Assembly: GCA_964510065.1 (NCBI GenBank)
Contig: CAZEAC010000006.1
Location: 6,748 to 70,747 of the forward strand
Direction: 5' to 3'
Source of the DNA: an uncultured Bdellovibrionales bacterium
Lineage (GTDB): Bacteria > Bdellovibrionota_C > UBA2361 > CAIXSY01
Length of the DNA stretch: 64,000 nucleotides
In this document: positions 4,538 through 57,640 of the stretch, one piece after another
Layout of the letters: each line of letters begins with the position of its first letter
Position numbering within the stretch: position 1 is the first letter of the stretch
Notes under the pieces: generated by a model
What the model saw: the letters and a program-made list of their open reading frames with translations, nothing else
Database searches by the model: none
What the model was told of the DNA's origin: nothing
Made by a program: the position numbers and the translations under genes

Positions 4538-4558
4538 TTCGATAGCGTGGAGCAATTC

Positions 4559-4605
4559 TGGACTTCTCATAGCTTTCCGAAGCGCAAACCCGTGAGAAGT
4601 CCAGG
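4559..4605. terminator. Inverted repeat (12-bp stem ctggacttctca/tgagaagtccag, 23-nt loop) between convergent htrA and a small ORF
   Basis: Read directly from the sequence. No clear T-tract follows, so a terminator role is uncertain. Confidence 0.3.
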
Positions 4606-8703: not shown

Positions 8704-8814
8704 TCTGTGACCTTTGTGCCTCCGTGTCTCTGTGGTTTGGCTACTTTAAAAACCACAGAGACACGGAGGCCGCAGAGCTAGGGAAAGAATACCCGGGGTT
8801 AATGAGTAGCTAGC
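8704..8814. repeat. Dispersed palindromic repeat family A, copy 1 (perfect 21-bp stem gcctccgtgtctctgtggttt / aaaccacagagacacggaggc)
   Basis: Read directly from the sequence. Related copies occur at about 38800 and 52487, all sharing the core aaaaaccacagag...c.c.gag...cacagag. Confidence 0.8.
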
Positions 8815-18508: not shown

Positions 18509-20086
18509 ATGTTCAGAAATGAGCCACTCACCGATTTTGCAATCGCTTCGGAGCGCAAAAAGCTTGCCGAAGCGCTCGATGCCTTACAGCATAATTTAGT
18601 CTCAAAAGCTCCACTTGAAGCATATCCGTTGATCGGCGCTGAGCGCGCCGGGGGCAATACACGCTACGATCGCTTCGATCCAAGCGATGGCGAAACACTC
18701 CTTGGGAGCACTCATTTCGCCACCGCCGATGAGGCTGCGCAGACTCTCGAATATCTTTCCGAGCATCATGCGTCATGGCGCGCAACTACGCACCAGGACC
18801 GCGCACGTATGTTGCGAAAGGCCGCCCACCTGATGCGCCAAAGAAAGTTCCAGCTCTCCGCGCTGATAATTCGCGAAGCGGGCAAACCTTGGAAGGAAGC
18901 TGACGCCGATGTTGCCGAGGCAATCGATTTTTGCGAATACTACGCCGATGAGGTCGAACGAATCTGGCCCAAGCGCCGTACCTACGAAATAATCGGCGAG
19001 GATAATTTTTATTTTTATCGTCCACGTGGTGTATGCGTGGTTATCTCGCCCTGGAACTTCCCTTTGGCGATTGCGTGCGGAATGACGGTGGCGGCACTCG
19101 TTACCGGGAACTCAACAGTTTTGAAACCAGCCGAGCAAACATGCCTCATCGCATTTGCGTTCGCGAATATTCTTTACGAGGCTGGAATTCCAAAGACGGC
19201 ATTCGCGTTCCTGCCTGGCTTCGGCGAGGAAGTTGGCCGTGCACTGGTGAGCAGCCCGCGCACTGCAATGGTTTGCTTCACCGGCTCGAGGGCTGTAGGT
19301 CTTGAGATCGGCAGGAGTGCTTCGCAAGTCTCCGCCGGACAGGCACATATAAAACGCGTGGTTGCGGAGTTAGGCGGGAAAAACGCGATCATAGTTGATC
19401 AAGACGCTGACTTAGATGAAGCAGTAAAGGGCGTGGTATATTCAGCGTTCGGATTTTCGGGACAGAAATGTTCAGCGTGTTCGCGAGCAATTATCGTCGG
19501 CAATGCATATGAGCCTTTTATAAAGCGGCTCCGTGGCGCGGCCGCTGATATCATTATCGGAGCAGCTTCCGATCCGAGTACACTCGTCGGTCCCGTCATT
19601 GACGAGGAGAGCAAACGCCGCATTCACGAAACAATCGAGACCGCCTCAAAGAGGCTCACCCTCATTCATAAAGGTAGCTGCCCCGCGAAAGGTAATTTCT
19701 GCCCCCCAACAATATTTGGCGCCGTGCCGTCACAAGAACCTGTGTGGCGCGAGGAGATATTCGGACCAGTGTTGGCTTGTTGCAGTGCCGACAGTTTTGA
19801 GCACGCGATAGCACTCGCAAATGATAGCCAGTATGCGCTTACAGGCGGTGTGTTTAGTCGAAGTCCGGCGCATTTGACTCAAGCGACCGAGGAATTTCAG
19901 GTTGGAAATCTCTATCTAAATCGCGCGATAACCGGGGCGTATGTCTGTCGCCAACCTTTCGGTGGCTTCAAACTTTCGGGGGTCGGCTCCAAAGCCGGCG
20001 GGCCAGACTATTTACTGCAATTTGTCGAACCGCGGGTTGTCACTGAAAACACAATGCGCCGCGGCTTCACCCCGGAAGTACGCTAG
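18509..20086 (+). CDS. pruA: 1-pyrroline-5-carboxylate dehydrogenase (aldehyde dehydrogenase family)
   Basis: ALDH motifs ELGGKNAIIVDQDADLDEAV and FGFSGQKCSACSRAIIV. The size and sequence fit PutA-C/RocA-like P5CDH. Confidence 0.75.
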   Translation: MFRNEPLTDFAIASERKKLAEALDALQHNLVSKAPLEAYPLIGAERAGGNTRYDRFDPSDGETLLGSTHFATADEAAQTLEYLSEHHASWRATTHQDRARMLRKAAHLMRQRKFQLSALIIREAGKPWKEADADVAEAIDFCEYYADEVERIWPKRRTYEIIGEDNFYFYRPRGVCVVISPWNFPLAIACGMTVAALVTGNSTVLKPAEQTCLIAFAFANILYEAGIPKTAFAFLPGFGEEVGRALVSSPRTAMVCFTGSRAVGLEIGRSASQVSAGQAHIKRVVAELGGKNAIIVDQDADLDEAVKGVVYSAFGFSGQKCSACSRAIIVGNAYEPFIKRLRGAAADIIIGAASDPSTLVGPVIDEESKRRIHETIETASKRLTLIHKGSCPAKGNFCPPTIFGAVPSQEPVWREEIFGPVLACCSADSFEHAIALANDSQYALTGGVFSRSPAHLTQATEEFQVGNLYLNRAITGAYVCRQPFGGFKLSGVGSKAGGPDYLLQFVEPRVVTENTMRRGFTPEVR

Positions 20087-20188
20087 GAGCGTGCGCCACG
20101 AATCAGTGGCACACGCAATTCATGGGAGCCGAAGCCTTCGCGCGTATACCTGTTGGGGCTTCCGTTCTCCGTGGCGCGGGCTTCTCGC
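20084..20188. repeat. Dispersed repeat family B, copy 1. It begins at the TAG stop of the P5CDH gene
   Basis: About 80% identical over ~105 bp to 27501-27605. Contains the hairpin gcgtgcgccac-gaatca-gtggcacacgc. Confidence 0.8.
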
Positions 20189-20351
20189 CTGCATCCTTAT
20201 CAGAGGGGTAAAGTTATCGTCGGATTGTTTTTTCGAATTGTTTTAGTGAGTTAGCCGCCAACGCCAACCTAATCCAGGTTAAAGATAAGTCCATCTTCTG
20301 CCGACCTAGGAGCTTAGGGAAGTTGTATCTACGCGGAATATTACGGGTCCT

Positions 20352-26507: not shown

Positions 26508-27503
26508 ATGAGAGCGCTAGGATTTCATACCCCCACTCCAAAACTTACTGATACCTCTTTTTCAACCTATGTCCTTCCTATACCCAAGGTAGGCCCACAG
26601 GATCTCTTGATCAAGGTAGCTGCGACCTCTATTAACCCTGTTGACTATAAAGAGCGCCAGCAAAGAACTTCTAATGGAAAAGATCCTGAGATCCTAGGAT
26701 GGGATGGAGCAGGCACCGTGGCAGGACTCGGCAGCGCCGTCACCGGATTCAAAGACGGCGATAGAGTCTTCTGGGCGGGCGAACTTCGCCGTCAAGGGAC
26801 GTATGCTGAATACCAGGCAGTCGATCACCGTATTGTAGGGCACATGCCTAAAAGTCTTGATTTTGCGCCTGCTGCTGCCTTGCCTCTGACTTCAGTAACT
26901 GCCTACGAAGCGATATTTCAAAGATTGAAAATTCCAAAAACGGGTGCTGGAAAAGTGCTTATAATCGGAGGCGCAGGAGGCGTTGGATCTATCGCTATTC
27001 AGATCTTACGAGCAGAAACAGACGCAGAGGTGTATGCAACCGCTGGCCGTGAAGATTCAAAAGCGTGGGTCAAAAAGATGGGAGCTCAACATGTCGTAGA
27101 ACGGAGCGCTATTAATCTTGCTGGTGATTCTCCAGCACTTCCGAAGTTTGATTACATATTCTCGACCACTAACTCTGATACCTACCTTAAAGCATTTCCA
27201 CTTCTTCTTAAACCAGGAGGACACCTCTGCCTTATCGATGATCCAGAGACCTTCAATATCAGAGAATTTAAACTGCGCTCTCAAACAGTATCATGGGAGC
27301 TTATGTTCACGGCGACCCTCTTCGACCATAACAGAGCGAGCCAAGGGCGCATTCTCGATCGAATTGCGGAACTTACCGATCAAGAACGAATTACTTCTAC
27401 TATCAATACTCGCTTTGAGGGGATGTCGCCGGAAAACTTAATAGCAGCCCACAAGATTCAAGAAAGTGGCAGTAATATCGGTAAGACTGTAGTGACGTAC
27501 TAG
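26508..27503 (+). CDS. Zinc-binding alcohol dehydrogenase / quinone oxidoreductase family (MDR superfamily)
   Basis: Carries IGGAGGVGSIAIQIL (Rossmann GxGxxG) and an N-terminal GroES-like region with LIKVAATSINPVD. Confidence 0.7.
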   Translation: MRALGFHTPTPKLTDTSFSTYVLPIPKVGPQDLLIKVAATSINPVDYKERQQRTSNGKDPEILGWDGAGTVAGLGSAVTGFKDGDRVFWAGELRRQGTYAEYQAVDHRIVGHMPKSLDFAPAAALPLTSVTAYEAIFQRLKIPKTGAGKVLIIGGAGGVGSIAIQILRAETDAEVYATAGREDSKAWVKKMGAQHVVERSAINLAGDSPALPKFDYIFSTTNSDTYLKAFPLLLKPGGHLCLIDDPETFNIREFKLRSQTVSWELMFTATLFDHNRASQGRILDRIAELTDQERITSTINTRFEGMSPENLIAAHKIQESGSNIGKTVVTY

Positions 27504-27605
27504 GAGCCTGCGCCACGAATCAGTGGCGCACACAATCCGTAGGGGCCGAAGCCTTCGCCTCTGCTACCTGTCGTAGCTTAAATTATTCGTGGCGCAGGCT
27601 CCTAG
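27501..27605. repeat. Dispersed repeat family B, copy 2. It begins at the TAG stop of the dehydrogenase gene and has 20-bp terminal inverted repeats (taggagcctgcgccacgaat...attcgtggcgcaggctccta)
   Basis: Read directly from the sequence. Confidence 0.8.
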
Positions 27606-38421: not shown

Positions 38422-38799
38422 GGCCAGCGCGGCTTACCCCACATAGTATTGTAGTGCTCGTTTATCCGTTTCTCTCCTGAGCGATGCCCCAGAAAACCAC
38501 TCCCGGAATCGGCAAACCCTCTCCCACGGAGGACATCAATCTGATTGCCACGAATGTTATTAGAAGGCGAAATAAGCAACCGGAGGAAACCGACCCCCAG
38601 CATACCAAGAACAGTTAAAAGGCCCAAACAGAGTAAGTAACCATTCGTGCTCATATCTTCTATTAACCACTAAACGACTCCAAACCATATGGAGTTCACA
38701 TTCCCAGTATCGCTGATAATTATCACAGAATTATCACAAGAGCATAAACGTACGCTAAAATAAAACTAGTGCTCTGTATTTAAGATCTTCTGACTTTTC

Positions 38800-38912
38800 C
38801 TCCCTCGATGCTCTCTGTGACTCTGTGGTCTATTTTACTTCCAAAAAAACCACAGAGTCACGGAGGGCACAGAGGGGAGAAGAGTCGGAAAACTTATGTT
38901 ACAGAGTACTAG
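38800..38912. repeat. Dispersed palindromic repeat family A, copy 2
   Basis: Shares aaaaaaaccacagagtcacggagggcacagagggga...gttacagagtacta with copies 1 and 3. Confidence 0.8.
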
Positions 38913-38965
38913 TGTCGTGACCACTTAATTTTCTCGCGGCAGGTACAAAGCTCTCGCCATTTCTT

Positions 38966-40089: not shown

Positions 40090-41574
40090 TTATTTGCTTA
40101 GTGACCCAAGGATCCCCCGCATAAGCTGTCGACCTACCTGGCTGCCAATCGATCGGACAACGCTCTTTACAAAAGCCTCGCCTGCGCCCTGGCGCTTCGA
40201 GCTGCCTCCGCCAAAAAGATCGCCCCAACCGCCACCGCTTGGGGCGGTGGTGGTCTCGACCTTGACCTGCTCTACCTTAACCTGTTCAGCCTGCTTTGAC
40301 TGCGCCTTGCCCTTAAGCAGCTCGTAGGCTGATTCTCGATCGACCGAGCGATCATACTTTTCGCGAAGCGGCGCTCCCATAATGAGCGCCTGCCGTGTTT
40401 CCGTACTTATCGGCCCAACCTGACTCTGCGGCGGAATAATTACCGCCTTTTGCACTACTCCGGGGGTGCCTTTTGCATCAAGAAACGATACAAGCGCCTG
40501 TCCGACACCAAGCTCAGTTATTTCGCGCTCGGTATCAAGCTCCGGATTAGCGCGCAGCGTTTCGGCTGCGGTACGTACGGCCTTCTGATCTTTCGGGGTA
40601 AACGCACGGAGCGCGTGCTGCACACGATTACCAAGCTGCCCCAACACCGTCTCCGGTATGTCGAGAGGATTCTGTGTCACGAAATACACCCCTACCCCTT
40701 TGGACCTGATCAGGCGCACAAGCTGTTCGATTTTCTCAAGCAGAACCCTGGGCGCATCATTAAACAGCAAGTGTGCCTCATCGAAGAAAAACACTAATTT
40801 AGGCTTCTCAAGATCACCAACTTCAGGCAGCGCCTCAAAAAGTTCGGAGAGTAGCCAGAGCAAGAATGTCGAGTAAAGCTTCGGCGCAGAGAGCAGCTTA
40901 TCCGCAGCGAGAATATTTACCACGCCGCCTCCTCGCGAGTTTGTCGCAATAAGGTCTTCAATGCCGAGTGCTGGTTCGCCGAAAAAATGGTTGGCTCCCT
41001 GTTCTTCCAGAGTAAGCAGCCCACGCTGGATCGCGCCGATGGACGCCGTCGAGACATTGCCATATTCGGCAAGGAGCTCTTTGGCATTCTCCCCAACTTC
41101 CTGGAGTACCGCGCGCAGATCTTTAAGATCAAGAATAAGTAAGCCTTTATCATCGGCGAATTTAAACACCAGGCTGAGCACTCCCGACTGTACATCATTG
41201 AGCTGCAATAGCTGGCCCAGAAGAAGCGGCCCAAGCTCGGAAACCGTCGTGCGAAGCGGTACCCCCTGCTCGCCAAAGACATCCCACAACGCTACGGGAC
41301 AGGGCGCAAAAATATGATCGCTAATACCGAGCTCTTTAAGTCTCTCGTCAACTTTGAGATTAGAGCCGCCTGCCTTAGCAAGGCCAGTAAGGTCGCCCTT
41401 TACATCAGCCATGAACACCGGCACACCGATCCGACTAAACCCTTCCGCCATTACTTGCAAAGTTACGGTTTTGCCAGTTCCTGTCGCTCCGGCAATCAAA
41501 CCGTGACGGTTCGCCATTTGCGGCAGCAACTCAACGGCGGCCTTCGCTCGGCCAACTATTATTGGGCTTACCAT
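40090..41574 (-). CDS. HerA-like ATPase of the DUF853 (YjgR) family
   Basis: Walker [19 protein letters not shown], a Walker B region [12 protein letters not shown] and a G/S-rich C-terminal tail typical of YjgR-like proteins. The start was chosen at the internal Met. Confidence 0.65.
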
Positions 41575-41635
41575 ACACTGATACCTCCTGTGACACTGCG
41601 TATGCTTGAAGTATAAGCGAATATTGCGTCGTTCT

Positions 41636-43399
41636 TCAAATGGAATCAGTCCCAAGATTGGAGTGCTCTTTTAAGTATACACTCCTTAGAGAATTATCGA
41701 CTTCACCCTTGGCTCGACGGTACTTATACAAGACCACATCACGTTCATTTCGACTCTTGTCTCTATCCAAGATCGATCGAAAATTCACAAGCTCGTGCCA
41801 TTCGGAAAGTGCTAATGGATTTTCGAGTGCCCAACTTCTTTTTGCGAGGAGATACCCACTTTGCACTTCGTTCCATCGATCAGGCTCGACCAAGCGCACC
41901 GGGCGTCTCAGATAATACAGAATCGGGTCGAAGAACTCTTCGTAGCGGTCACGAATCACCACAAGCTCGCCGGTGTCTCCGACAACTCCAAAGATGGCTG
42001 CTGCTATCCCGGCGAAATCTTTATACTGCGCCTTAATGCCGTCGCCAAGCGAGCAGCAGGTAAGGAGCAGTGCCGTAACCGAGTAGTGCACTGCACTCGC
42101 GCGAAACCATTGCATCGAGGGAGTATGCCAAGTCGCGACACACAGCACCGCGCTCGTCGATAACACCAGCAACGGAACAGGAAGCGCCACCTGGAGCCAA
42201 GCTTGCGCCATTTGAACTTCCGGTCGGGAAAATTCAACACCGAAGCCCACAATAAGTAACGCAACGATCACACTACAGGCTATGCCGGCAACTATATAAC
42301 CGACGTTGCGAAGCAGCAGATGTAATCTCTGATACAACGTCGCGGAGAGCAGCGGGACACGCTCAATGATCCACGCCGCCAATGCAAGTGCCATCGGCGG
42401 ATACAGCGGCAATAAGTATGAATGCCGTTTCCCAGCAGCAATTGAGAAACCTACGAACACGACAATAAACCAGGTGTTGCCAATCCGCGCCGCGATTGAT
42501 TTACTTCGTGCGACGACGAGCGAAAGCAAAAAGAGCGCCGACCAAGGCGCGGCCTTGCTGAGCAGCGACGGCAGATAAAACCAGGGCGGCCCACTTGGAA
42601 TATGCTCACCACCGAAGGCTCGTCGAACATTTTCAAAGAATATCTGACGATCGATAAACTCCTGAGCACCACCGAAGGAGAGCAAGATGTACCATGGCAC
42701 TGCGACGAGGAGATAGATTAGCCATCCGATTCGCGGCGCAAAACACAACCTCGCGGCTGTTCGAACTCCCTCTTTCATGGCGATACAAAAGAAGATTATC
42801 GCGCTAGGCAGCACAAATCCGAGTGGCCCCTTGGCCAACGTGGCGACGCCTGCGGCGAAAAAGAAATAGCTAAAATCATACTCGCGGAGATTCATCTCAA
42901 TCATCGTCGAGGCAAAACGACGAAGTATAAAATAGCAGGCTAGCGAAACCCAAAACGTGAAACACATATCGACCATTGCGGTGACCGCCATGTTCGAAAA
43001 GCCATAGGTTGTTACCAGGATAAACGCAGTAAGTTTAATAACAGCGCTTCGCTCGGCATCTTTTGAAAAAAGCGTGTGTGCCAGAAGTAAGGTAATATAC
43101 AGCGTTCCCGCCGCAAAAAGCAGCGAGGTAATCCGCCCAAGAGCGGGAATTACTTCAATGCCGAGCACTTCAGCAAGTGCCGCAGTAATCCAGTGGTAGA
43201 GCGGTGGCTTCGAGGCAACAAGGCCGTTTCGAGTCGGGCTGAGCCAATTACCGGTATCATGAATGACTTGGGCGACATGAAGCTCGCGTGCCTCTGATGA
43301 CCCACTCAGTTCTGAAATTGAAACGAGTGGAAAGGCGGCGACGAAATAGGCCGCTACTAACACGATGCAGAGACGGTGCAGGTGATAATGTTTAGACAA
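41636..43399 (-). CDS. ArnT/PMT-like glycosyltransferase (GT39/GT83 family, polytopic membrane)
   Basis: More than 10 TM helices and an N-terminal [22 protein letters not shown] region matching the lipid-carrier-dependent glycosyltransferase signature. Confidence 0.6.
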
Positions 43400-43617: not shown

Positions 43618-44556
43618 TCATTTTTTAGAGCGTGTGCTGCATCTGCCAGGGCTTAGCCTGAGCTTCTCACAAGCACCCGAGAACGTACACGATGCCTTGG
43701 TTTTTCGAGCAGTTACGTTTAGGCTACGGGAAGCACCGAGGCGTACTCCTTTTCGGCGCGAAAGGAGCTTCTTCGGAGCCTTCTTTTCGCCGTCCTCATC
43801 GAAACATGGTTTATTCTTAATATCGAGCACATCGCGAAGTTCGCCATGCAACGCCTCGAGAGCCTTTCGCTTTACACGCGAGATATGGCATCGGCTATAT
43901 CCTAAGTTCGAAGCTATATCCATGAGCTGCTGTTCGAGAACGTATATTCTGTAGATAACCTCTTTCTCAAGAGGATCGAGATTTCCACAGGCCTTCGAAC
44001 TTAGACCGGCGACCTCTTTCTTAAGAAGCGCGTCATCAGGCGAGATATAATCATGGTTGAAAAAGGAGTCGGCAATCTCTATAGCATTTAAGCAGCGCCC
44101 CTTATTGACCGCGCCGTCATTATTACTATCGGATCCTTCAAAATCTGGAAGAGGCAGGTAATTCATCGAAGCTGCTGCGGCAACTGCGCGAATTAGATTC
44201 CCTCTCAGATGGTAGAATAGGAAGGTAATGAAGCTCGCCCCTTTCCGGCGATTGTAGCGCTTCACTGCTTCGCAAAGCGAGAGGTCGACAACGCTGTCCA
44301 CCTCTTGTGCATCAAGCCGTGAATGCCACTTTCGCAAGATGCTGTGTGCGAGGCTTCGCGCCTTTAGCCTATGCGAGAGAATCATCTCCTCCTGTTCGCT
44401 TGGCGAGAGTGTCGCCTTACTGCGCTTGGAAAGATTGATTACTTTTGCTCGATTTCTAGAAGATGAGGCAATCCTTTTGCCACTCTTCAACGAGCGATTT
44501 GCCGGGGTCCGATACGCAACTGCGGGCAGAGCGTTCATTTTTCCTTCTCCTTTCAA
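43618..44556 (-). CDS. Sigma-70 family RNA polymerase sigma factor (regions 2 and 4; basic N- and C-terminal extensions)
   Basis: Region 2-like DSVVDLSLCEAVKRYNRRKGASFITFLFYHLRGNLIRAV and region 4 HTH IASNLGYSRCHISRVKRKALEAL. Confidence 0.6.
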   Translation of the reverse strand: MKGEGKMNALPAVAYRTPANRSLKSGKRIASSSRNRAKVINLSKRSKATLSPSEQEEMILSHRLKARSLAHSILRKWHSRLDAQEVDSVVDLSLCEAVKRYNRRKGASFITFLFYHLRGNLIRAVAAAASMNYLPLPDFEGSDSNNDGAVNKGRCLNAIEIADSFFNHDYISPDDALLKKEVAGLSSKACGNLDPLEKEVIYRIYVLEQQLMDIASNLGYSRCHISRVKRKALEALHGELRDVLDIKNKPCFDEDGEKKAPKKLLSRRKGVRLGASRSLNVTARKTKASCTFSGACEKLRLSPGRCSTRSKK

Positions 44557-44863: not shown

Positions 44864-45661
44864 GTGGCCAAGGAAGAAAAACCAGAAACTCTCTCGATCG
44901 AAGAGGCCAACCAACTTGTTGAGGAGAATGCTGGCTGGGCGGAAAGTATCGCCAGGTCGGTTGCTCGCGGTTGGAACTTGGACTGGAAGTTGGACGGACT
45001 TGACGGTGCCGCGATGGAGGCGTTGATCTTCTGTTCGCGTCGCTTCCAGCCTTCGCGCGGAGTTCCTTTCAAGGGTTACGCGAGAAAGCGCATTCATGAA
45101 GCTTCTACTGACGCGGCTAAGAAGTCACGTGGCTGGCGTAAGGGGCTTGGCGCAAGCTCCGCAGAACAGCGCACGCGCGAGATATCATCGGAATTGTTCA
45201 ATGTATTTCCGGAACTGCGCGAAGGAAATCTTCCCTATGCGGATGACCCTTCAGGCGATGATACAGCGGATATGCGTGCGTCGGTACGCGGGCTATTGAT
45301 GAGCGCGAGCATAATTGCGGTGCGCCAGGGCATGGATGAGGCGTCGCCCGACGACCTCGTCGACTACAAAAAGATGTTAAGGCTCATTGCTGAACTTGAA
45401 CCGGTACATCAGTCTCTGTTATGGGAAGTGTACTGGGAAGGTAACTCGATGCGAACAGTGGCGACAAATTGGGAAGTTGATGAGCTAAGTGTCATTCGCG
45501 AACATAAATCGCTACTGACTCATATTCAGAAGGGATTTTCAAAGAAGGCAAAACAGGTCAGATTAAAAGTGCGCCCGGCGTTAAAAGATACCGCGCTTAA
45601 ATTGCGAAAGCGTGGTAACGGCGGTCCATTTGAAAGGCTAGTTGCGGGAGAAGCCCAATGA
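44864..45661 (+). CDS. Sigma-70 family RNA polymerase sigma factor (FliA/ECF-like)
   Basis: Region 2-like ESIARSVARGW...DGLDGAAMEALIFCSRRFQPSRGVPFKGYARKRIHEAS and a C-terminal region 4-like segment. Confidence 0.55.
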   Translation: MAKEEKPETLSIEEANQLVEENAGWAESIARSVARGWNLDWKLDGLDGAAMEALIFCSRRFQPSRGVPFKGYARKRIHEASTDAAKKSRGWRKGLGASSAEQRTREISSELFNVFPELREGNLPYADDPSGDDTADMRASVRGLLMSASIIAVRQGMDEASPDDLVDYKKMLRLIAELEPVHQSLLWEVYWEGNSMRTVATNWEVDELSVIREHKSLLTHIQKGFSKKAKQVRLKVRPALKDTALKLRKRGNGGPFERLVAGEAQ

Positions 45662-49241: not shown

Positions 49242-49302
49242 GGTATTACTATCCGCCAGAAAAATCTTCCTAAGATTAGAAGATTCTGGCGGATAGTAAT
49301 AC
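49242..49302. repeat. Strong hairpin (about 24-bp stem tattactatccgccagaa..atcttc / gaagattctggcggatagtaata) in the long intergenic region upstream of the M16 peptidase gene
   Basis: Read directly from the sequence. Confidence 0.75.
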
Positions 49303-52434: not shown

Positions 52435-52486
52435 GTTAATAAAAGGGATCCGGCACCTAGCCTGGAACATATGTTTTCCGACTCTT

Positions 52487-52600
52487 CTCATCTCTGTGCT
52501 CTCCGTGCCTGTGGTTTAATTGTCTTTATAAAAACCACAGAGGCTCAGAGGACACCGAGACAGGGAAAAGTGAGAAGATTTCGTTAACAGAGTACTAACG
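52487..52600. repeat. Dispersed palindromic repeat family A, copy 3
   Basis: Shares ctctgtgctctccgtgcctgtggttt...aaaaaccacagaggctcagagg...gttaacagagtacta with copies 1 and 2. Confidence 0.8.
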
Positions 52601-52850: not shown

Positions 52851-53903
52851 CTAGATTGACCACTCGCCTTCAAATCTCCCGGCAAGTACTGGGACGAAAT
52901 CCACAGGATCACGAGCCGCACGCATAGATTGTGCTCGCTTGGCTTCCAACTCACTTAAGGCGGCGGCGCGCGCGTTATCCAGAACTCCTGCGATATGGCG
53001 AAGCAGCGGAGCTCGATCCAAGAGCTTCACATAATGCGAGGAGGTATCAGCGAAAGAGGATCCCCACGCCTGATTTAGCAATTCCTGACCAAATTCAAAG
53101 GTTGCACATTGACCGTTTGGCGCTCTCACCGTGTAACGGTCGGAAGCAGATTTGCCGTACGCCATAGCCGAGGAGCTAAAGCTTTCTGGCTCGGGATACA
53201 CGGTTATTGGAAGGGGCACCGAATTCGAAAATCCCGGCGCCGCGGCATACTCTTTGGGGAGATTCATTTTCGGCGATATTGCGATAACAGCCACTCCTTT
53301 CGCATCGGTCGCATCGCGCACGAATTGCCACGTAATTTGCTCATGATGTGACCAGCCGTCGTGATACCCACGCCCTTGAACAATCGCGGGTTGAAACTTC
53401 GATAGGTTTCTGGCGAGCTGCTTCGTTGCGCTGGCCATCATTCCGTTCCGAAGTATCTCGAAGGCCACCTTTTCTCCGATGCATTCAGGATTTAGCGGAG
53501 TCGTTCGATTCCTCTCGTTGATGTCTAACGTAACAACTCTTCTTGACAGTGGGATGTCACGAGTCGCTGTGTCAAAATATACAGTAGTCGCGACTTGGAT
53601 CCGCGGCTCTCCCGTGCTCTTATCGAGCCTTACCTCAGACTTCGTTCGTACCATCGGGTGATCGGCAGCATAAATCTGGCCATCAGAGCCCTTCGCGATT
53701 CTTATTCTTCCGAAGCTTGGAGAAATGATGGATTGAGAGTCGACTTTGCTAAAAGTTTCTTCCAGGCTAGGTCGAGTTTCTGGCTTAACCGGCTGCGGCT
53801 TTTTAAAAAGACGCGCAATTGTTTCATACATATAACCACCCCTAAAACGGCCCCGACGGGCATTTGTCCGCCCGATTCTAAGCGAAATTGAATTGCTACT
53901 CAA
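52851..53903 (-). CDS. Hypothetical protein
   Basis: 350-aa ORF. No recognised motif. Confidence 0.4.
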   Translation of the reverse strand: MSSNSISLRIGRTNARRGRFRGGYMYETIARLFKKPQPVKPETRPSLEETFSKVDSQSIISPSFGRIRIAKGSDGQIYAADHPMVRTKSEVRLDKSTGEPRIQVATTVYFDTATRDIPLSRRVVTLDINERNRTTPLNPECIGEKVAFEILRNGMMASATKQLARNLSKFQPAIVQGRGYHDGWSHHEQITWQFVRDATDAKGVAVIAISPKMNLPKEYAAAPGFSNSVPLPITVYPEPESFSSSAMAYGKSASDRYTVRAPNGQCATFEFGQELLNQAWGSSFADTSSHYVKLLDRAPLLRHIAGVLDNARAAALSELEAKRAQSMRAARDPVDFVPVLAGRFEGEWSI

Positions 53904-54121
53904 AGATACGGAAATCTTCGAGAATGATTGTTTTAACAGGCTTTCCTTGAGGAAGCCAAGGCAACGAACTTGTACCGAGTTCAGCAGTTACAATAAGCAA
54001 TTGGGGCCGATGCGCGTCACCCCTATATTCTTAACCTAGAATCGTCCTTTTACGGGCGCTGTTGCCAAGCAACTTCTCACCGTCACCCTTACAGAGGAAA
54101 ATATAATTTGTCAGATTCGAC

Positions 54122-54201
54122 GATATCTCTGCAGCTACCCGTTTTGATATCTCGCCAGCTGCACTTTACAGAATCGAAAATATTTGGATCCTTCACCAAT
54201 C
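54122..54201. repeat. Dispersed repeat family C, copy 1 (about 90% identical to 60465-60545)
   Basis: Read directly from the sequence. On the minus strand it encodes a 28-codon remnant ending ...KVQLARYQNG*, which matches the C-terminus of the TPR protein at 60478-60906. Confidence 0.8.
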
Positions 54202-54265
54202 ATAAGACGGTAGCCCCATTCTCCCGCTTAATTCATTAATGGTATAATCTTCGGGAACTAGCGTT

Positions 54266-54973
54266 ATGTTTGGACTCTCTAAAATGGAGCGCGCCAATTC
54301 GGTGCGCGCAACCTTAAATACAGCTGCGGCAAAGCTAGAGGAAGTGCTCGGTAAAAAATTCGACGCTGGCGACACCGGCGTCGATGACGTATTTCGCATG
54401 GGAGTGGCGATATTCAATCTTGAGCACCAATCAACAAGCTCGACATGGGTCGGTTTCTCGTCAACGGAAAGGATCTACGCAAAGGCATTAGCCTTTTGCT
54501 TAAATCCTGAGTTCGGAGTCGGGCGGTTCGGAGTACGCACTCCAATATTTCTTGAAAGCGATATTCCGCTGGTCGAGAGCAGGCTCAAAGAAATGGCGCA
54601 CCTGTTGGGAATGGAGTTCGTTCCGAAGATGAATCTACTAGTGGATCCCTTAAGAGGATGGTTCGAACCCGAAGAGCTTTCGGCGGTCACTACCAATGGT
54701 ATCGTACTGAACTATCAGGCCATGATTCGCACGCAAACATCGGGTACGGACAGGAATTCTGCCCGAGGAATCGCCGACAAGGTCTGCAACGCCGTCGATG
54801 CAAATGCTCCCCGCCTCAGGGCGATAGTCGACGACATTACCGATGCAATGAAACGCGGCTATGACGCCGTAAGAGTCCGGGTTCCTGACTTGTCCGCGTA
54901 TTTCCGTGAGTGCCCGAGTTTCGTCGGTTACAAACAACTAAGAGGATACGACTTCCCTCCTCGATTTCATTGA
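54266..54973 (+). CDS. Hypothetical protein
   Basis: 235-aa ORF. No recognised motif. Confidence 0.4.
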   Translation: MFGLSKMERANSVRATLNTAAAKLEEVLGKKFDAGDTGVDDVFRMGVAIFNLEHQSTSSTWVGFSSTERIYAKALAFCLNPEFGVGRFGVRTPIFLESDIPLVESRLKEMAHLLGMEFVPKMNLLVDPLRGWFEPEELSAVTTNGIVLNYQAMIRTQTSGTDRNSARGIADKVCNAVDANAPRLRAIVDDITDAMKRGYDAVRVRVPDLSAYFRECPSFVGYKQLRGYDFPPRFH

Positions 54974-55073
54974 CTGAGGTCCCCTACTCTCCGGTTCGCA
55001 TGTTTACGACCGGTCAAGTTCAGAACAGCACTCTCGTCCGAATATTAGTCTTAAGAGGCTCAATACGCTCCCT

Positions 55074-55150
55074 CTCAGGTGAGATGAATGCTCCTCAGTT
55101 TCCCTGCTACCACGTAGTAGGGAAACTAAGGAGCATTCATCTCACCTGAG
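55074..55150. repeat. Long near-perfect hairpin (37-bp arms, 2 mismatches, 3-nt loop) between convergent genes
   Basis: Read directly from the sequence: ctcaggtgagatgaatgctcctcagtttccctgctac / gtagtagggaaactaaggagcattcatctcacctgag. Confidence 0.75.
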
Positions 55151-55393
55151 GCAATACGCACGGGAATTATCGAGGGGAGTTTATACGACAATATTGAGAT
55201 CCTAGATCTGAAGATGATGTTTCTGAACCTGAACTTACTGATGACATTTGCTAAGACATAACAAGTAGATAAACCAGGTTCGCGCATTCGTACTACTGTT
55301 CGTCGAAATCGCAGAAAAGTTGCCGCTTATTTATCGCGCGGTCTCCGAAGGAATGATCGGGGAATGCTCGGAGGCCTCTTGTGCGGCCATAGC

Positions 55394-56908
55394 TTACGCA
55401 GGCAGCTTCTCGGTCAGCTTCTCGCGAAGTTCAGGTAACCTATTGGCACACACGATAAAGTCTTTGGTCTCAAGACGCGGAGGATTATATGGTTTGCCAT
55501 TTGCATTCGGCGGAAAATCGTCAAGACGAAGCGCCACCTCTTGACGAAGATTCTCACGCCACAAGTGCAGTTCGTTCACGAGAGTTTTAAGATCTTGTGT
55601 TGAGAGGCCCTCAAGAAACGAGCCGACAACGTTCCACTTAATTCCCCGAGAAACTTCAAGATGAAAGTTATTCTGAAATTTTTCTTTGGCGAGGATCGGC
55701 AGGATTCGACTAATATCCTCACTCGTAAGTCCATTGGAACGCGCCCAGTATGTAAGCTCGCCTCGAGGATGACTATTCGCGGCTGTTGCTTCGGAAGTTC
55801 CGAATGCGTGGCGCCACAGGGCCATTTCAGCTTCTCGATGGTTTTCCACGGGCACCGCACTGGAGTTTATGAGAAACACCTGCGGCTCGAGACTCGAGCG
55901 TTGAACACGATTGGACAGCCTGCCCGCGGAATCATGGAACTGACTATTCGGCAGTGCCGCCTTAATATAGGCGCTCGCAGCTTCAAGGAGTTCGCGATCT
56001 GCCTCTACTTTAAGCGATGGATACACGGGATTCTTGCCCTTCAGATTTTCGTCAATCGAAGTGATTCTCACCATCCAGTTGTCAATCGCACGGCGAAGAT
56101 CGTTTGGCAGCATCGTCCCTAAATGTGAAGCGTTCGTTTTCTTGGGTGCAGCGTGGTTTGGACTCTCATTGATGAACCGAGCGACCTCATCTAAGGCCCC
56201 CTTGAAACAGATCTCCTCAGAAAGGCTAGGGAGACGCAGGTTAGGGTCGATTATAAACCGACCAGCTATATTCAAGTTTGTCGATGAAACCACAATAGGC
56301 GCCGACTCAGCGGGGAGCTTCACGCCAAGACAGCAGTCAGTGACGAGAAGATTTCTTAGAACTCCTAGAACGGGCTTTAAACAGACCAAGAGCTGTGCTT
56401 CGCTACTCGGATACTTACTCTCGAACTGTATTGTATGGCGGATTGTGTCTTCGGGAGCGTTAGCAATCGAGCCAATCGTGATCTTTTGTGAATGGCTCTG
56501 CTTTGAATTTCTCAATTGAATACTGGCCAGACTCTTCCCGGCTCCATTTGGGCCGGTGATCGGTTTAATGATCAGATTTGGAGTGCTTCTGCGTGCGACT
56601 CTACTTAGCAATTCTACGAACTGTGCTTTATCCCCCTTAACTTGATGGTGAAATTCGCAGATCAATATTCCGGAACTCTTTAGAAATACCCGGATCTGAG
56701 ATGGAGCAGGAAGTGCACTGGAACTTATTTGAAATCCCAGATCTTCGCGCTCTTTTAGGGCCGCACCGACTGTACCTTTGTCGAAAGGCTTCAGCGGAAA
56801 CTTTTTCACGATCTCCGCGAGCTTCGCCGGCTTCAATGACTCGGAATTTGAAGCGTGCTGGTGAGTCATAAGGATCTGACCTAATTGTTGCTTCGGCGAT
56901 TGATACAC
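55394..56908 (-). CDS. Hypothetical P-loop NTPase
   Basis: Walker A ITGPNGAGKS at about residue 125 (an ABC/SMC-like P-loop). No clear Walker B found, and the rest is unassigned. Confidence 0.45.
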   Translation of the reverse strand: MYQSPKQQLGQILMTHQHASNSESLKPAKLAEIVKKFPLKPFDKGTVGAALKEREDLGFQISSSALPAPSQIRVFLKSSGILICEFHHQVKGDKAQFVELLSRVARRSTPNLIIKPITGPNGAGKSLASIQLRNSKQSHSQKITIGSIANAPEDTIRHTIQFESKYPSSEAQLLVCLKPVLGVLRNLLVTDCCLGVKLPAESAPIVVSSTNLNIAGRFIIDPNLRLPSLSEEICFKGALDEVARFINESPNHAAPKKTNASHLGTMLPNDLRRAIDNWMVRITSIDENLKGKNPVYPSLKVEADRELLEAASAYIKAALPNSQFHDSAGRLSNRVQRSSLEPQVFLINSSAVPVENHREAEMALWRHAFGTSEATAANSHPRGELTYWARSNGLTSEDISRILPILAKEKFQNNFHLEVSRGIKWNVVGSFLEGLSTQDLKTLVNELHLWRENLRQEVALRLDDFPPNANGKPYNPPRLETKDFIVCANRLPELREKLTEKLPA

Positions 56909-56992: not shown

Positions 56993-57640
56993 TTATTTAA
57001 GCGGTAAGAGCACATTCGCGCCCTGGCCGCCACCGGGCTGTATCGATACCGCAGGCAGCGCTTTACCGTCCCAGCATTGCGCTATCTCGAACAGGATGAC
57101 TTCAGGCGACATTTTGAGTGCCTCACCATTAATTTGTACTGATTTCGCCTCGGCCTCCGCGCGTACGATCGTTATTTCGGCCTGCTTTTTCTCTTTGTCT
57201 AATTCAAATTGCTTGGCGAAGGCTTCCTGTTCGCGCACAACTTTCTGTTCAATTGCCTGCTCAAGCTGATCGGAGAGACCGATATTGGTGATAATTAGAT
57301 CGCTAAGGGTAATAAGGTCTCCGAGCGCTTTGGAGACATTAAGTAGAACTTCGGCCTTTACCTTCTCGTGATTTTTAACCATATCCTCGGCCCTAAAGAG
57401 CGCGGTTACCTGCCTCATACCATGAGCCATTCCCTCAGAGAACGCGCAAGCATTGATATCATTGACCAATTTGCAATTTCGCGCGTTCTCTGAGGGAATT
57501 ATCGGCGGAAACCGTTCATGCTGAATACTAACTATTTTCGTGTACTCTTTTATGATCGCCAATAGTCTCAGACACTTAGTCAACAAACACTTAACTTTGT
57601 GAAGCAATTCGCTAGGAATACGGATATTAGAGTACTCCAA
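56993..57640 (-). pseudogene. SPFH/band-7 (prohibitin/HflKC-like) gene remnant. Only the C-terminal half is SPFH-like, and the N-terminal part is interrupted by a perfect 18-bp inverted repeat
   Basis: The C-terminal VKNHEKVKAEVLLNVSKALGDLITLSDLIITNIGLSDQLEQAIEQK...AEAEAKSVQINGEA is SPFH-like, while the N-terminal 95 aa are not. The IR ttccctcagagaacgcgc/gcgcgttctctgagggaa lies at 57430-57498, inside the ORF. Confidence 0.45.

Follow-up and report, generated by a model that had tools for sequence, protein, structure and literature searches.

Three orphan genes beside a type III export operon in an uncultured Bdellovibrionales bacterium

We analysed a 64,000-nucleotide stretch of DNA from an uncultured Bdellovibrionales bacterium (GenBank assembly GCA_964510065.1), hereafter the window, in which three genes of no recognisable function lie between positions 52851 and 56908. 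An earlier reading of the sequence, the original prediction, took these genes for an accessory or defence island that includes a P-loop nucleoside triphosphatase (NTPase) and is bounded by dispersed repeats. All of the elements on which it drew are present with small corrections to their coordinates, namely the three open reading frames (ORFs), the Walker A-like string ITGPNGAGKS, the hairpin with a 37-bp stem and both repeats, while the SPFH gene remnant described beside them matches the C-terminal half of its family only. The features of the locus are as follows (aa, amino acids; nt, nucleotides; TPR, tetratricopeptide repeat).

52462-52568, no strand: palindromic intergenic element of repeat family A, with arms at 52495-52517 and 52532-52554
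52851-53903, minus strand: orphan gene 1, an ORF of 350 aa from a TTG at 53903; likely gene 52851-53831, 326 aa
53875-53903, minus strand: sigma70-like promoter candidate of gene 1 (TTGAGT-17-TAGAAT, from a consensus scan), overlapping the TTG "start" of the 350-aa ORF
54102-54224, minus strand: copy 1 of repeat family C, the frameshifted remains of the 3′ end of a gene for a TPR chaperone (LcrH/SycD-like), with ~35 nt downstream
54240-54248, plus strand: extended -10 element of gene 2, TGGTATAAT, 17 nt before the ATG, read from the sequence
54266-54973, plus strand: orphan gene 2, 235 aa, ATG start
55074-55150, no strand: hairpin of 77 nt between the convergent genes 2 and 3, with arms at 55074-55110 and 55114-55150
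55394-56908, minus strand: orphan gene 3, an ORF of 504 aa from a GTG at 56908; likely gene 55394-56869, 491 aa
55505-55621, minus strand: weak SAP-like helix-turn-helix motif, residues 430-468 of the 504-aa ORF, highly conserved with the homologue P0006 (see below)
56531-56554, minus strand: Walker A-like string GPNGAGKS, residues 119-126 of the 504-aa ORF (ITGPNGAGKS is 117-126)
56993-57640, minus strand: truncated SPFH/HflC-like gene remnant, directly upstream of gene 3
60445-60547, minus strand: copy 2 of repeat family C, the intact 3′ terminus of the gene for the TPR chaperone (60478-60906), which closes a sctQRSTU-like operon

The true start of gene 1 is likely M25 at 53831, which would give a protein of 326 aa: the corresponding NCBI-derived protein (P0004) has this length, the alignment with its homologue begins there, and the promoter-like site covers the TTG. 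Gene 3 likely starts at M14 (56869) and would then encode 491 aa (protein P0001). The orientations of the three genes alternate (minus, plus, minus) with spacers of 434 and 420 bp, and the genes therefore represent three separate transcription units, in keeping with a promoter-like element for each gene, as listed above for genes 1 and 2; gene 3 is preceded on its own strand by the SPFH relic. This layout differs from that of known defence operons, which are co-directional and tightly packed.

No sigma-28-type promoter (TAAA-N15-GCCGATAA) was found near the three genes in a pattern scan, and searches by tblastn and blastp revealed no paralogues of their products in the window or among themselves. 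Judged by crude sequence features, the three proteins carry no transmembrane segment and no Sec signal peptide, and their N-termini are polar. Two of the three are basic, the gene 1 protein having a pI of 9.1.

Family membership, relatives and composition

None of the three proteins matches a family in Pfam, NCBIfam, PADLOC or PHROGs, and no housekeeping or other characterised homologue was found for any of them, in agreement with the original prediction that they lack a recognisable housekeeping function. Of the 44 genes in the window, approximately 37 have a family match; those without one are found mainly at 52.8-60.4 kb, so that this stretch is a true local cluster of genes without a family.

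Homologues were sought with a word-indexed search for all three proteins and with an exhaustive HMMER search of 1.84 billion representatives for the 504-aa protein. In total these searches returned two true relatives. The gene 1 protein has a single homologue (P0005; 36% identity over ~300 aa), encoded on a 2.3-kb contig (L002) assembled from run DRR350542. There its gene lies tail-to-tail with a sigma-like gene (positions 1315-1998 of the contig) whose product shares 37% identity with that of window gene 43618-44556 and has thus diverged to the same degree as orphan gene 1. Equal divergence of the sigma-like gene and the orphan suggests that both descended vertically within one deep lineage while gene order changed; inheritance of gene 1 and its homologue thus looks vertical, without conserved synteny. 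In the window, the gene at 43618-44556 (minus strand) is divergently transcribed from another at 44864-45661 (plus strand), and both are very divergent members of the sigma-70 family (FliA/WhiG-like).

For the 235-aa protein, the word-indexed search of 5.8 billion clusters found no homologue, only the protein itself. An identical contig of 1,039 bp is present in SRR16481187 and represents the same organism. The 504-aa protein likewise retrieved only itself in the word-indexed search. The exhaustive HMMER search yielded, besides the query, P0006, a protein of 428 aa encoded on a 65,976-bp NCBI contig with 49% identity, and P0007, a fungal SAP-repeat protein from Batrachochytrium salamandrivorans. 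Between the 504-aa protein and P0006 identity is 46-49% overall and rises to ~75% at the C-terminus.

Searches in which all word-sharing candidates were scored returned no relatives of the 350- or 235-aa proteins from the genome that encodes P0006, and locus scans of genome, metagenome and viral contig collections gave no match. As far as these sequences tell, the phyletic patterns of the three genes are disjoint and their relatives do not co-occur. The genes appear to be real, since two of them are conserved at the protein level with 36-49% identity.

Base composition gives no hint of a boundary. The GC content is flat across the region (0.48-0.50 in the three genes versus ~0.51 for the window), the GC content of third codon positions is 0.50-0.56 in the orphan genes compared with 0.52 ± 0.05 in the flanks, and the synonymous-codon log-likelihood is -1.22 to -1.25 compared with -1.20 ± 0.045; third-position GC and codon usage both fall within about one standard deviation. 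The comparison of GC and codon usage with the flanks that had been proposed as a check on the island thus revealed no deviation. The window has no transfer RNA gene, no integrase or transposase was present among the ORFs scanned, and the region has no match among PHROGs, plasmids, phages or viral contigs. In composition, the three genes are native and show no sign of foreign origin or mobility.

Comparison with defence models gave a similar outcome. PADLOC yielded no match for the 350- and 504-aa proteins and only noise for the 235-aa protein (E=0.04-0.05), and none of the three corresponds to a defence model. Native composition, the absence of mobility genes and of PADLOC matches, separate transcription units and homologues that do not co-occur together argue against a defence or accessory island.

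The Walker A string and a SAP-like segment of gene 3

The string GPNGAGKS of the 504-aa ORF conforms to the Walker A pattern GxxGxGK[ST]. The generic form [AG]x4GK[ST] is expected to occur 1.28 times by chance in the 16.9k residues of the window, compared with only ~5e-4 to 9e-4 chance occurrences per window for the extended pattern GxNGxGKS. With so low an expectation, the string cannot be put down simply to chance. Elsewhere in the window, Walker A matches occur only in genuine NTPases (dynamin-like and HerA-like).

The sole homologue does not share the motif. In the alignment with P0006, TGPNGAGKS is paired with RGRLQSDSI, a stretch with one of nine residues identical in which the Lys and the Ser are lost, while the segments around the site are conserved (NL.I.P..G......LA.I). 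A regular-expression scan of the 504-aa protein detected neither a Walker B motif (hhhhD[DE]) nor the ABC signature LSGGQ, and the protein has no Q-loop or H-loop. A loose hhhhD (LLVTD/FLVTD) is conserved in both family members 68 residues downstream of the Walker A site, where LLVTD is followed by a Cys.

Profile searches gave no sign of a P-loop family. The full-length 504-aa protein has no match to a P-loop family at E<=10 in Pfam or at E<=0.1 in NCBIfam, the excised Walker A fragment gives best profile matches of only E=0.17, and a phmmer search of the PDB sequences returned only an LD-carboxypeptidase (E=1.8) and no P-loop protein. AlphaFold2 models of the 504-aa ORF have a mean predicted local distance difference test score of 33.6 from the single sequence and 34.0 from a two-sequence alignment, scores too low to define a fold. 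On balance, these comparisons suggest that the conserved function of the 491-aa family does not depend on the Walker A motif. The earlier assignment of a P-loop NTPase accordingly finds no support, given a motif that its homologue lacks, the absence of hhhhDE and LSGGQ, and profiles that stay silent even at E<=10. The original prediction had itself held that the assignment would fall if the match were an isolated chance motif without an NTPase fold, and as an isolated motif the Walker A string largely fits that description.

The string recalls the ABC/SMC-type P-loop ATPases that act in defence systems (Pfam AAA_15/AAA_21/AAA_23/SMC_N; GajA, PtuA, LmuB, JetC and AriA are examples), in that the 504-aa protein has the exact consensus GPNGAGKS after a hydrophobic, strand-like segment. 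It differs from them in having neither a profile match nor a Walker B (hhhhDE) or signature, and its homologue does not conserve the motif. Moreover, neither a partner nuclease or effector gene nor an operon is present here.

The best conserved part of the 491-aa family includes residues 430-468 of the 504-aa ORF, which resemble the SAP/HeH (helix-extension-helix; Rho_N-like) DNA/RNA-binding motif. This segment is 33-38% identical to each SAP repeat of the Batrachochytrium protein P0007 in BLASTP comparisons, and P0007 in turn matches Pfam SAP at 5e-82. Alignment by hhalign with a profile of the eight P0007 repeats gave a probability of 90.7% (E 1.3e-6, 37 columns), a partly circular result since P0007 was the best match in the library. 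In contrast to established members, the segment lacks the conserved glycine of the SAP turn, and neither Pfam SAP (PF02037) nor Rho_N matches the last 111 residues of the 504-aa protein or of P0006 at E<=10. We do not take the E value of 3.4e-8 from the whole-library search as proof of a SAP domain, because that score was reached by adding up one weak match of 39 residues over six repeats. A SAP-like motif for binding nucleic acids may be present at the C-terminus of the 491-aa protein, which we regard as a lead only.

Hairpins, repeats and gene relics

The hairpin at 55074-55150 separates the convergent genes 2 and 3 and lies 100 bp past the stop codon of gene 2 and 244 bp past that of gene 3. 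Its 37-nt arms are 95% complementary and enclose a loop of 3 nt, with a calculated free energy of -74.2 kcal/mol (z = -11.5 relative to shuffled sequences). Neither strand has a U-tract (T-run) after the hairpin, as an intrinsic (Rho-independent) terminator would, and no second copy exists within the window. Other long perfect or near-perfect palindromes are present after or between genes at 4558-4604, 8718-8770, 20074-20196, 27500-27605 and 49243-49302. From its likeness to these palindromes that come after genes, the hairpin would most likely serve the convergent pair as a bidirectional transcription stop that lacks a U-tract or as a stabiliser of RNA 3′ ends.

Like REP/BIME-like (repetitive extragenic palindrome/bacterial interspersed mosaic element) or MITE-like (miniature inverted-repeat transposable element) palindromes and terminator hairpins without a U-tract, both the hairpin and the family A element are long and near-perfect and lie after stop codons or between convergent genes. 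However, the stem at 55074-55150 is far longer than that of typical terminators, and the element is single-copy in the window. With a permissive threshold, the only Rfam models to match the hairpin were those of microRNA precursors, below their gathering scores; we rejected these matches, which reflect the presence of a long hairpin.

A second family of repeats is represented at 20083-20141 and 27500-27558 (with partners at 20170-20196 and 27585-27605), whose copies are 88% identical. These repeats begin exactly at or overlap the stop codons of two unrelated genes, those for pyrroline-5-carboxylate (P5C) dehydrogenase and a Zn-dependent dehydrogenase, and contain a GC-rich hairpin. They are probably a repeated terminator-like module.

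The two repeats that flank the first of the orphan genes belong to different families. Family A has arms ...CCTCCGTGTCTCTGTGGTTT / AAACCACAGAGACACGGAGG... and a core consisting of AAACCACAGAGnCACGGAGG and its complement, and one copy has arms of 71 nt. Its relatives at 8718-8786 and 38765-38913 both lie beside housekeeping-type genes (a carboxyltransferase gene and a MOSC-domain gene), and the element is thus not an island boundary. It looks REP/MITE-like.

Family C has a different origin. The DNA repeat of copy 1 spans 54102-54202, with similarity at the protein level extending to 54224, and is ~86% identical to 60445-60547. On the minus strand, copy 1 reads LVKDPNI and then, in another frame, KVQLARYQN and a stop, compared with a chaperone C-terminus of LVKDPNIIRFYKVQLARYQNR and a stop; by tblastn it matches chaperone residues 112-141. 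Judged from this sequence, copy 1 arose when the chaperone gene was partly duplicated at its 3′ end, and survives as a relic. We also considered family C as a regulatory element shared by the divergent promoter region, or as a mobile repeat, and rejected both ideas on account of the frameshifted chaperone 3′ end. The view that dispersed repeats bound the locus therefore finds no support, as family A is a palindromic element found near housekeeping genes as well and family C derives from a chaperone gene.

The SPFH ORF aligns with positions 99-176 of the 176 in the Band_7 profile and with only 165-255 of the 318 in the HflC model. Together with the chaperone 3′ end, this truncated gene makes two gene relics within 8 kb. 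Inside the non-SPFH 5′ part of the ORF is a perfect 19-nt inverted repeat with a 33-nt spacer (57429-57499), which may mark a breakpoint or an inserted element that truncated the SPFH gene.

The export operon and interpretation of the locus

Just beyond the orphan cluster, an operon on the minus strand (60478-63989) encodes a type III export apparatus. It is located ~6 kb from family C copy 1 and contains the following genes.

63279-63989, minus strand: FliN/SctQ-like protein, by family match; seems to carry two SpoA-type segments
62695-63273, minus strand: FliP/SctR, by family match
62456-62737, minus strand: membrane ORF of FliQ/SctS size, by size and membrane character
between the SctS-like and SctU-like genes, minus strand: ORF in the SctT position, polytopic, 199 aa
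61197-61853, minus strand: N-terminal half of FlhB/SctU, 218 aa, the membrane domain without the C-terminal autocleavage (NPTH) domain
after the SctU-like gene and before the TPR gene, minus strand: orphan of 96 aa within the export operon
60478-60906, minus strand: TPR chaperone-like protein, 142 aa; best NCBIfam match LcrH_SycD, E 1.6e-6, below the cut-off

A fourth orphan gene lies at 57658-59829 on the plus strand. Its 723-aa product has a signal peptide and 62 cysteines (8.6%) in apparently repeated modules of spaced cysteines (…C.D.KKCEY.C…); no family in Pfam, NCBIfam, PADLOC or PHROGs matches the protein, a singleton in a collection of 15 billion proteins. Between this gene and that of the TPR chaperone are ~650 bp (59830-60477) with no ORF of more than 72 aa. 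Downstream of a class II chaperone, this is the expected position of a translocator or effector gene, and the segment may hold an eroded gene or a non-coding RNA.

Our favoured interpretation, to which we give about an even chance, is that the locus is not a multi-gene system. Instead, the three genes (326, 235 and 491 aa) would be independently transcribed, lineage-restricted orphans in a variable stretch of gene decay beside a type III secretion locus. This stretch would amount to ~8 kb of evolutionary flux between the gene for a PreP-like peptidase and the operon of sctQRSTU and the TPR chaperone, and would hold, in addition to the three genes, the fourth orphan, the two gene relics and unusually long non-coding spacers filled with palindromes.

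Within this interpretation, the role that we favour for the orphan proteins, though at well below even odds, would be that of fast-evolving, effector-like substrates or accessory factors of the neighbouring secretion system. The idea derives from their position by the secretion operon, from the chaperone relic directly upstream of gene 1, and from the lack of Sec signals and membrane segments. All of the orphan genes are within a few kilobases of the locus that resembles a type III secretion system (T3SS), as would be expected for T3SS substrates. Effector genes beside the T3SS loci of Chlamydiota, Yersinia, Shigella and Salmonella offer a parallel, in that orphan, fast-evolving, soluble, Sec-less proteins are encoded near a sctQRSTU-type operon and a TPR chaperone. 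The parallel extends to gene 1, which lies directly downstream of the chaperone relic, the usual place of a translocator or effector gene. Unlike those loci, however, the one described here is known from its genes alone and provides neither a chaperone-binding motif nor an intact dedicated chaperone adjoining the orphans. Furthermore, its apparatus cannot be assigned securely to an injectisome as opposed to a flagellar gate, and its SctU-like protein is without the C-terminal domain.

Several observations weigh against the interpretation of the locus that we favour, or against its secretion component. The export genes score slightly better on flagellar than on injectisome models (106 bits for FliP compared with 85 bits for YscR), and the neighbouring apparatus could be flagellar. 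The proposed role as secretion substrates is argued only from location and from negative results, inspection of the orphan proteins by eye revealed no PxLxxP, the motif bound by class II chaperones, and the chaperone copy adjoining gene 1 is a relic only. The evidence on co-occurrence consists of two relatives, one of which is on a contig of 2.3 kb. Finally, the eight-residue GPNGAGKS is improbable by chance and the hhhhD is conserved, a combination that would fit a degenerate or lineage-specific NTPase, although we think this unlikely.

In its fuller form, this last explanation holds that the 491-aa protein is a real but extremely divergent stand-alone P-loop NTPase with LLVTD as its Walker B-like element, and that P0006 is a pseudo-enzyme that has lost nucleotide binding. 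Fewer than 1e-3 exact ABC-type 8-mers would be expected per window, the residues that flank the motif are conserved in P0006, the hhhhD is kept at the same distance in both proteins, and the remaining Walker A matches of the window all belong to genuine NTPases. However, the motif is only 1/9 identical in the sole homologue when the rest of the protein is 46-49% and its C-terminus ~75% identical, no acidic residue follows the D, and signature, Q-loop and H-loop are lacking. Pfam, NCBIfam and PDB offer no P-loop family even at E<=10 and the fragment reaches only E=0.17, while the low-confidence models would place a strand after GKS rather than the required helix. A related and still less probable proposal makes the 491-aa protein and P0006 a new family that combines a degenerate ABC-like nucleotide-binding head with the SAP-like motif, acting either as a T3SS-delivered effector targeted to the nucleus or as a new stand-alone NTPase.

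Non-functionality of some of the ORFs, above all that of 235 aa, would also account for part of the picture if these were decaying or spurious reading frames in a place where genes are being eroded. No homologue whatsoever was found for the 235-aa protein, the region has two clear relics and long non-coding spacers, and both AlphaFold runs on the 504-aa ORF were of low confidence. We nonetheless rate this as rather improbable because the 326- and 491-aa proteins are conserved at 36-49% over their full length in other organisms. The 235-aa ORF, for its part, has gene-like codon usage and codon-position GC (0.56/0.43/0.56), an extended -10 element lies just upstream, and by our own estimate a stop-free run of 235 codons is expected only ~0.07 times per window.

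Least probable of all, in our view, is the proposal from which this analysis started, that the three genes form an anti-phage or accessory system with an ABC/SMC-like ATPase resembling Gabija, Septu, Lamassu, Wadjet or PARIS-type systems. Unknown genes in a cluster, one of them with a Walker A string, together with repeats and a gene fragment do have the appearance of such a system, and none of the proteins has a housekeeping homologue. Against it, nothing in PADLOC falls below E=0.04, the genes are neither co-directional nor operonic, their composition is native with no mobility genes nearby, their homologues are found apart from one another, conservation of the Walker A string is lacking, and the repeats are otherwise explained. 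We therefore retain the interpretation of three separate orphan genes in a decaying stretch.

Most of the remaining genes in the window are ordinary and have family matches, among them PBP1, DegP, carboxylase subunits, PutA-type enzymes, RsmB and a hybrid histidine kinase. Further genes with family matches encode a pyrophosphatase, MetAP, a HerA_C ATPase, a dynamin-like GTPase and a PreP-like M16C peptidase. The gene for the HerA_C/DUF853 ATPase (748 bits) overlaps that of an upstream ArnT-like glycosyltransferase by 20 nt (40090-41655 and 41636-43399, both on the minus strand), which is an unusual pairing. Each of ten housekeeping proteins checked from the window was, at 90% identity, a singleton in a collection of ~15 billion proteins. 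Nor is the genome among the species representatives of GTDB r232, and these two observations indicate that the lineage is barely sampled.

A Walker A string matching at eight of eight positions, unknown neighbours, repeats and a gene fragment were not sufficient to call a defence island at this locus. Most of that case was removed by a single homologue, by the orientation of the genes, by composition and by the origin of the repeats. Should the orphan proteins prove to be secretion substrates, they would offer a way into the study of how a poorly sampled bacterium interacts with its host.

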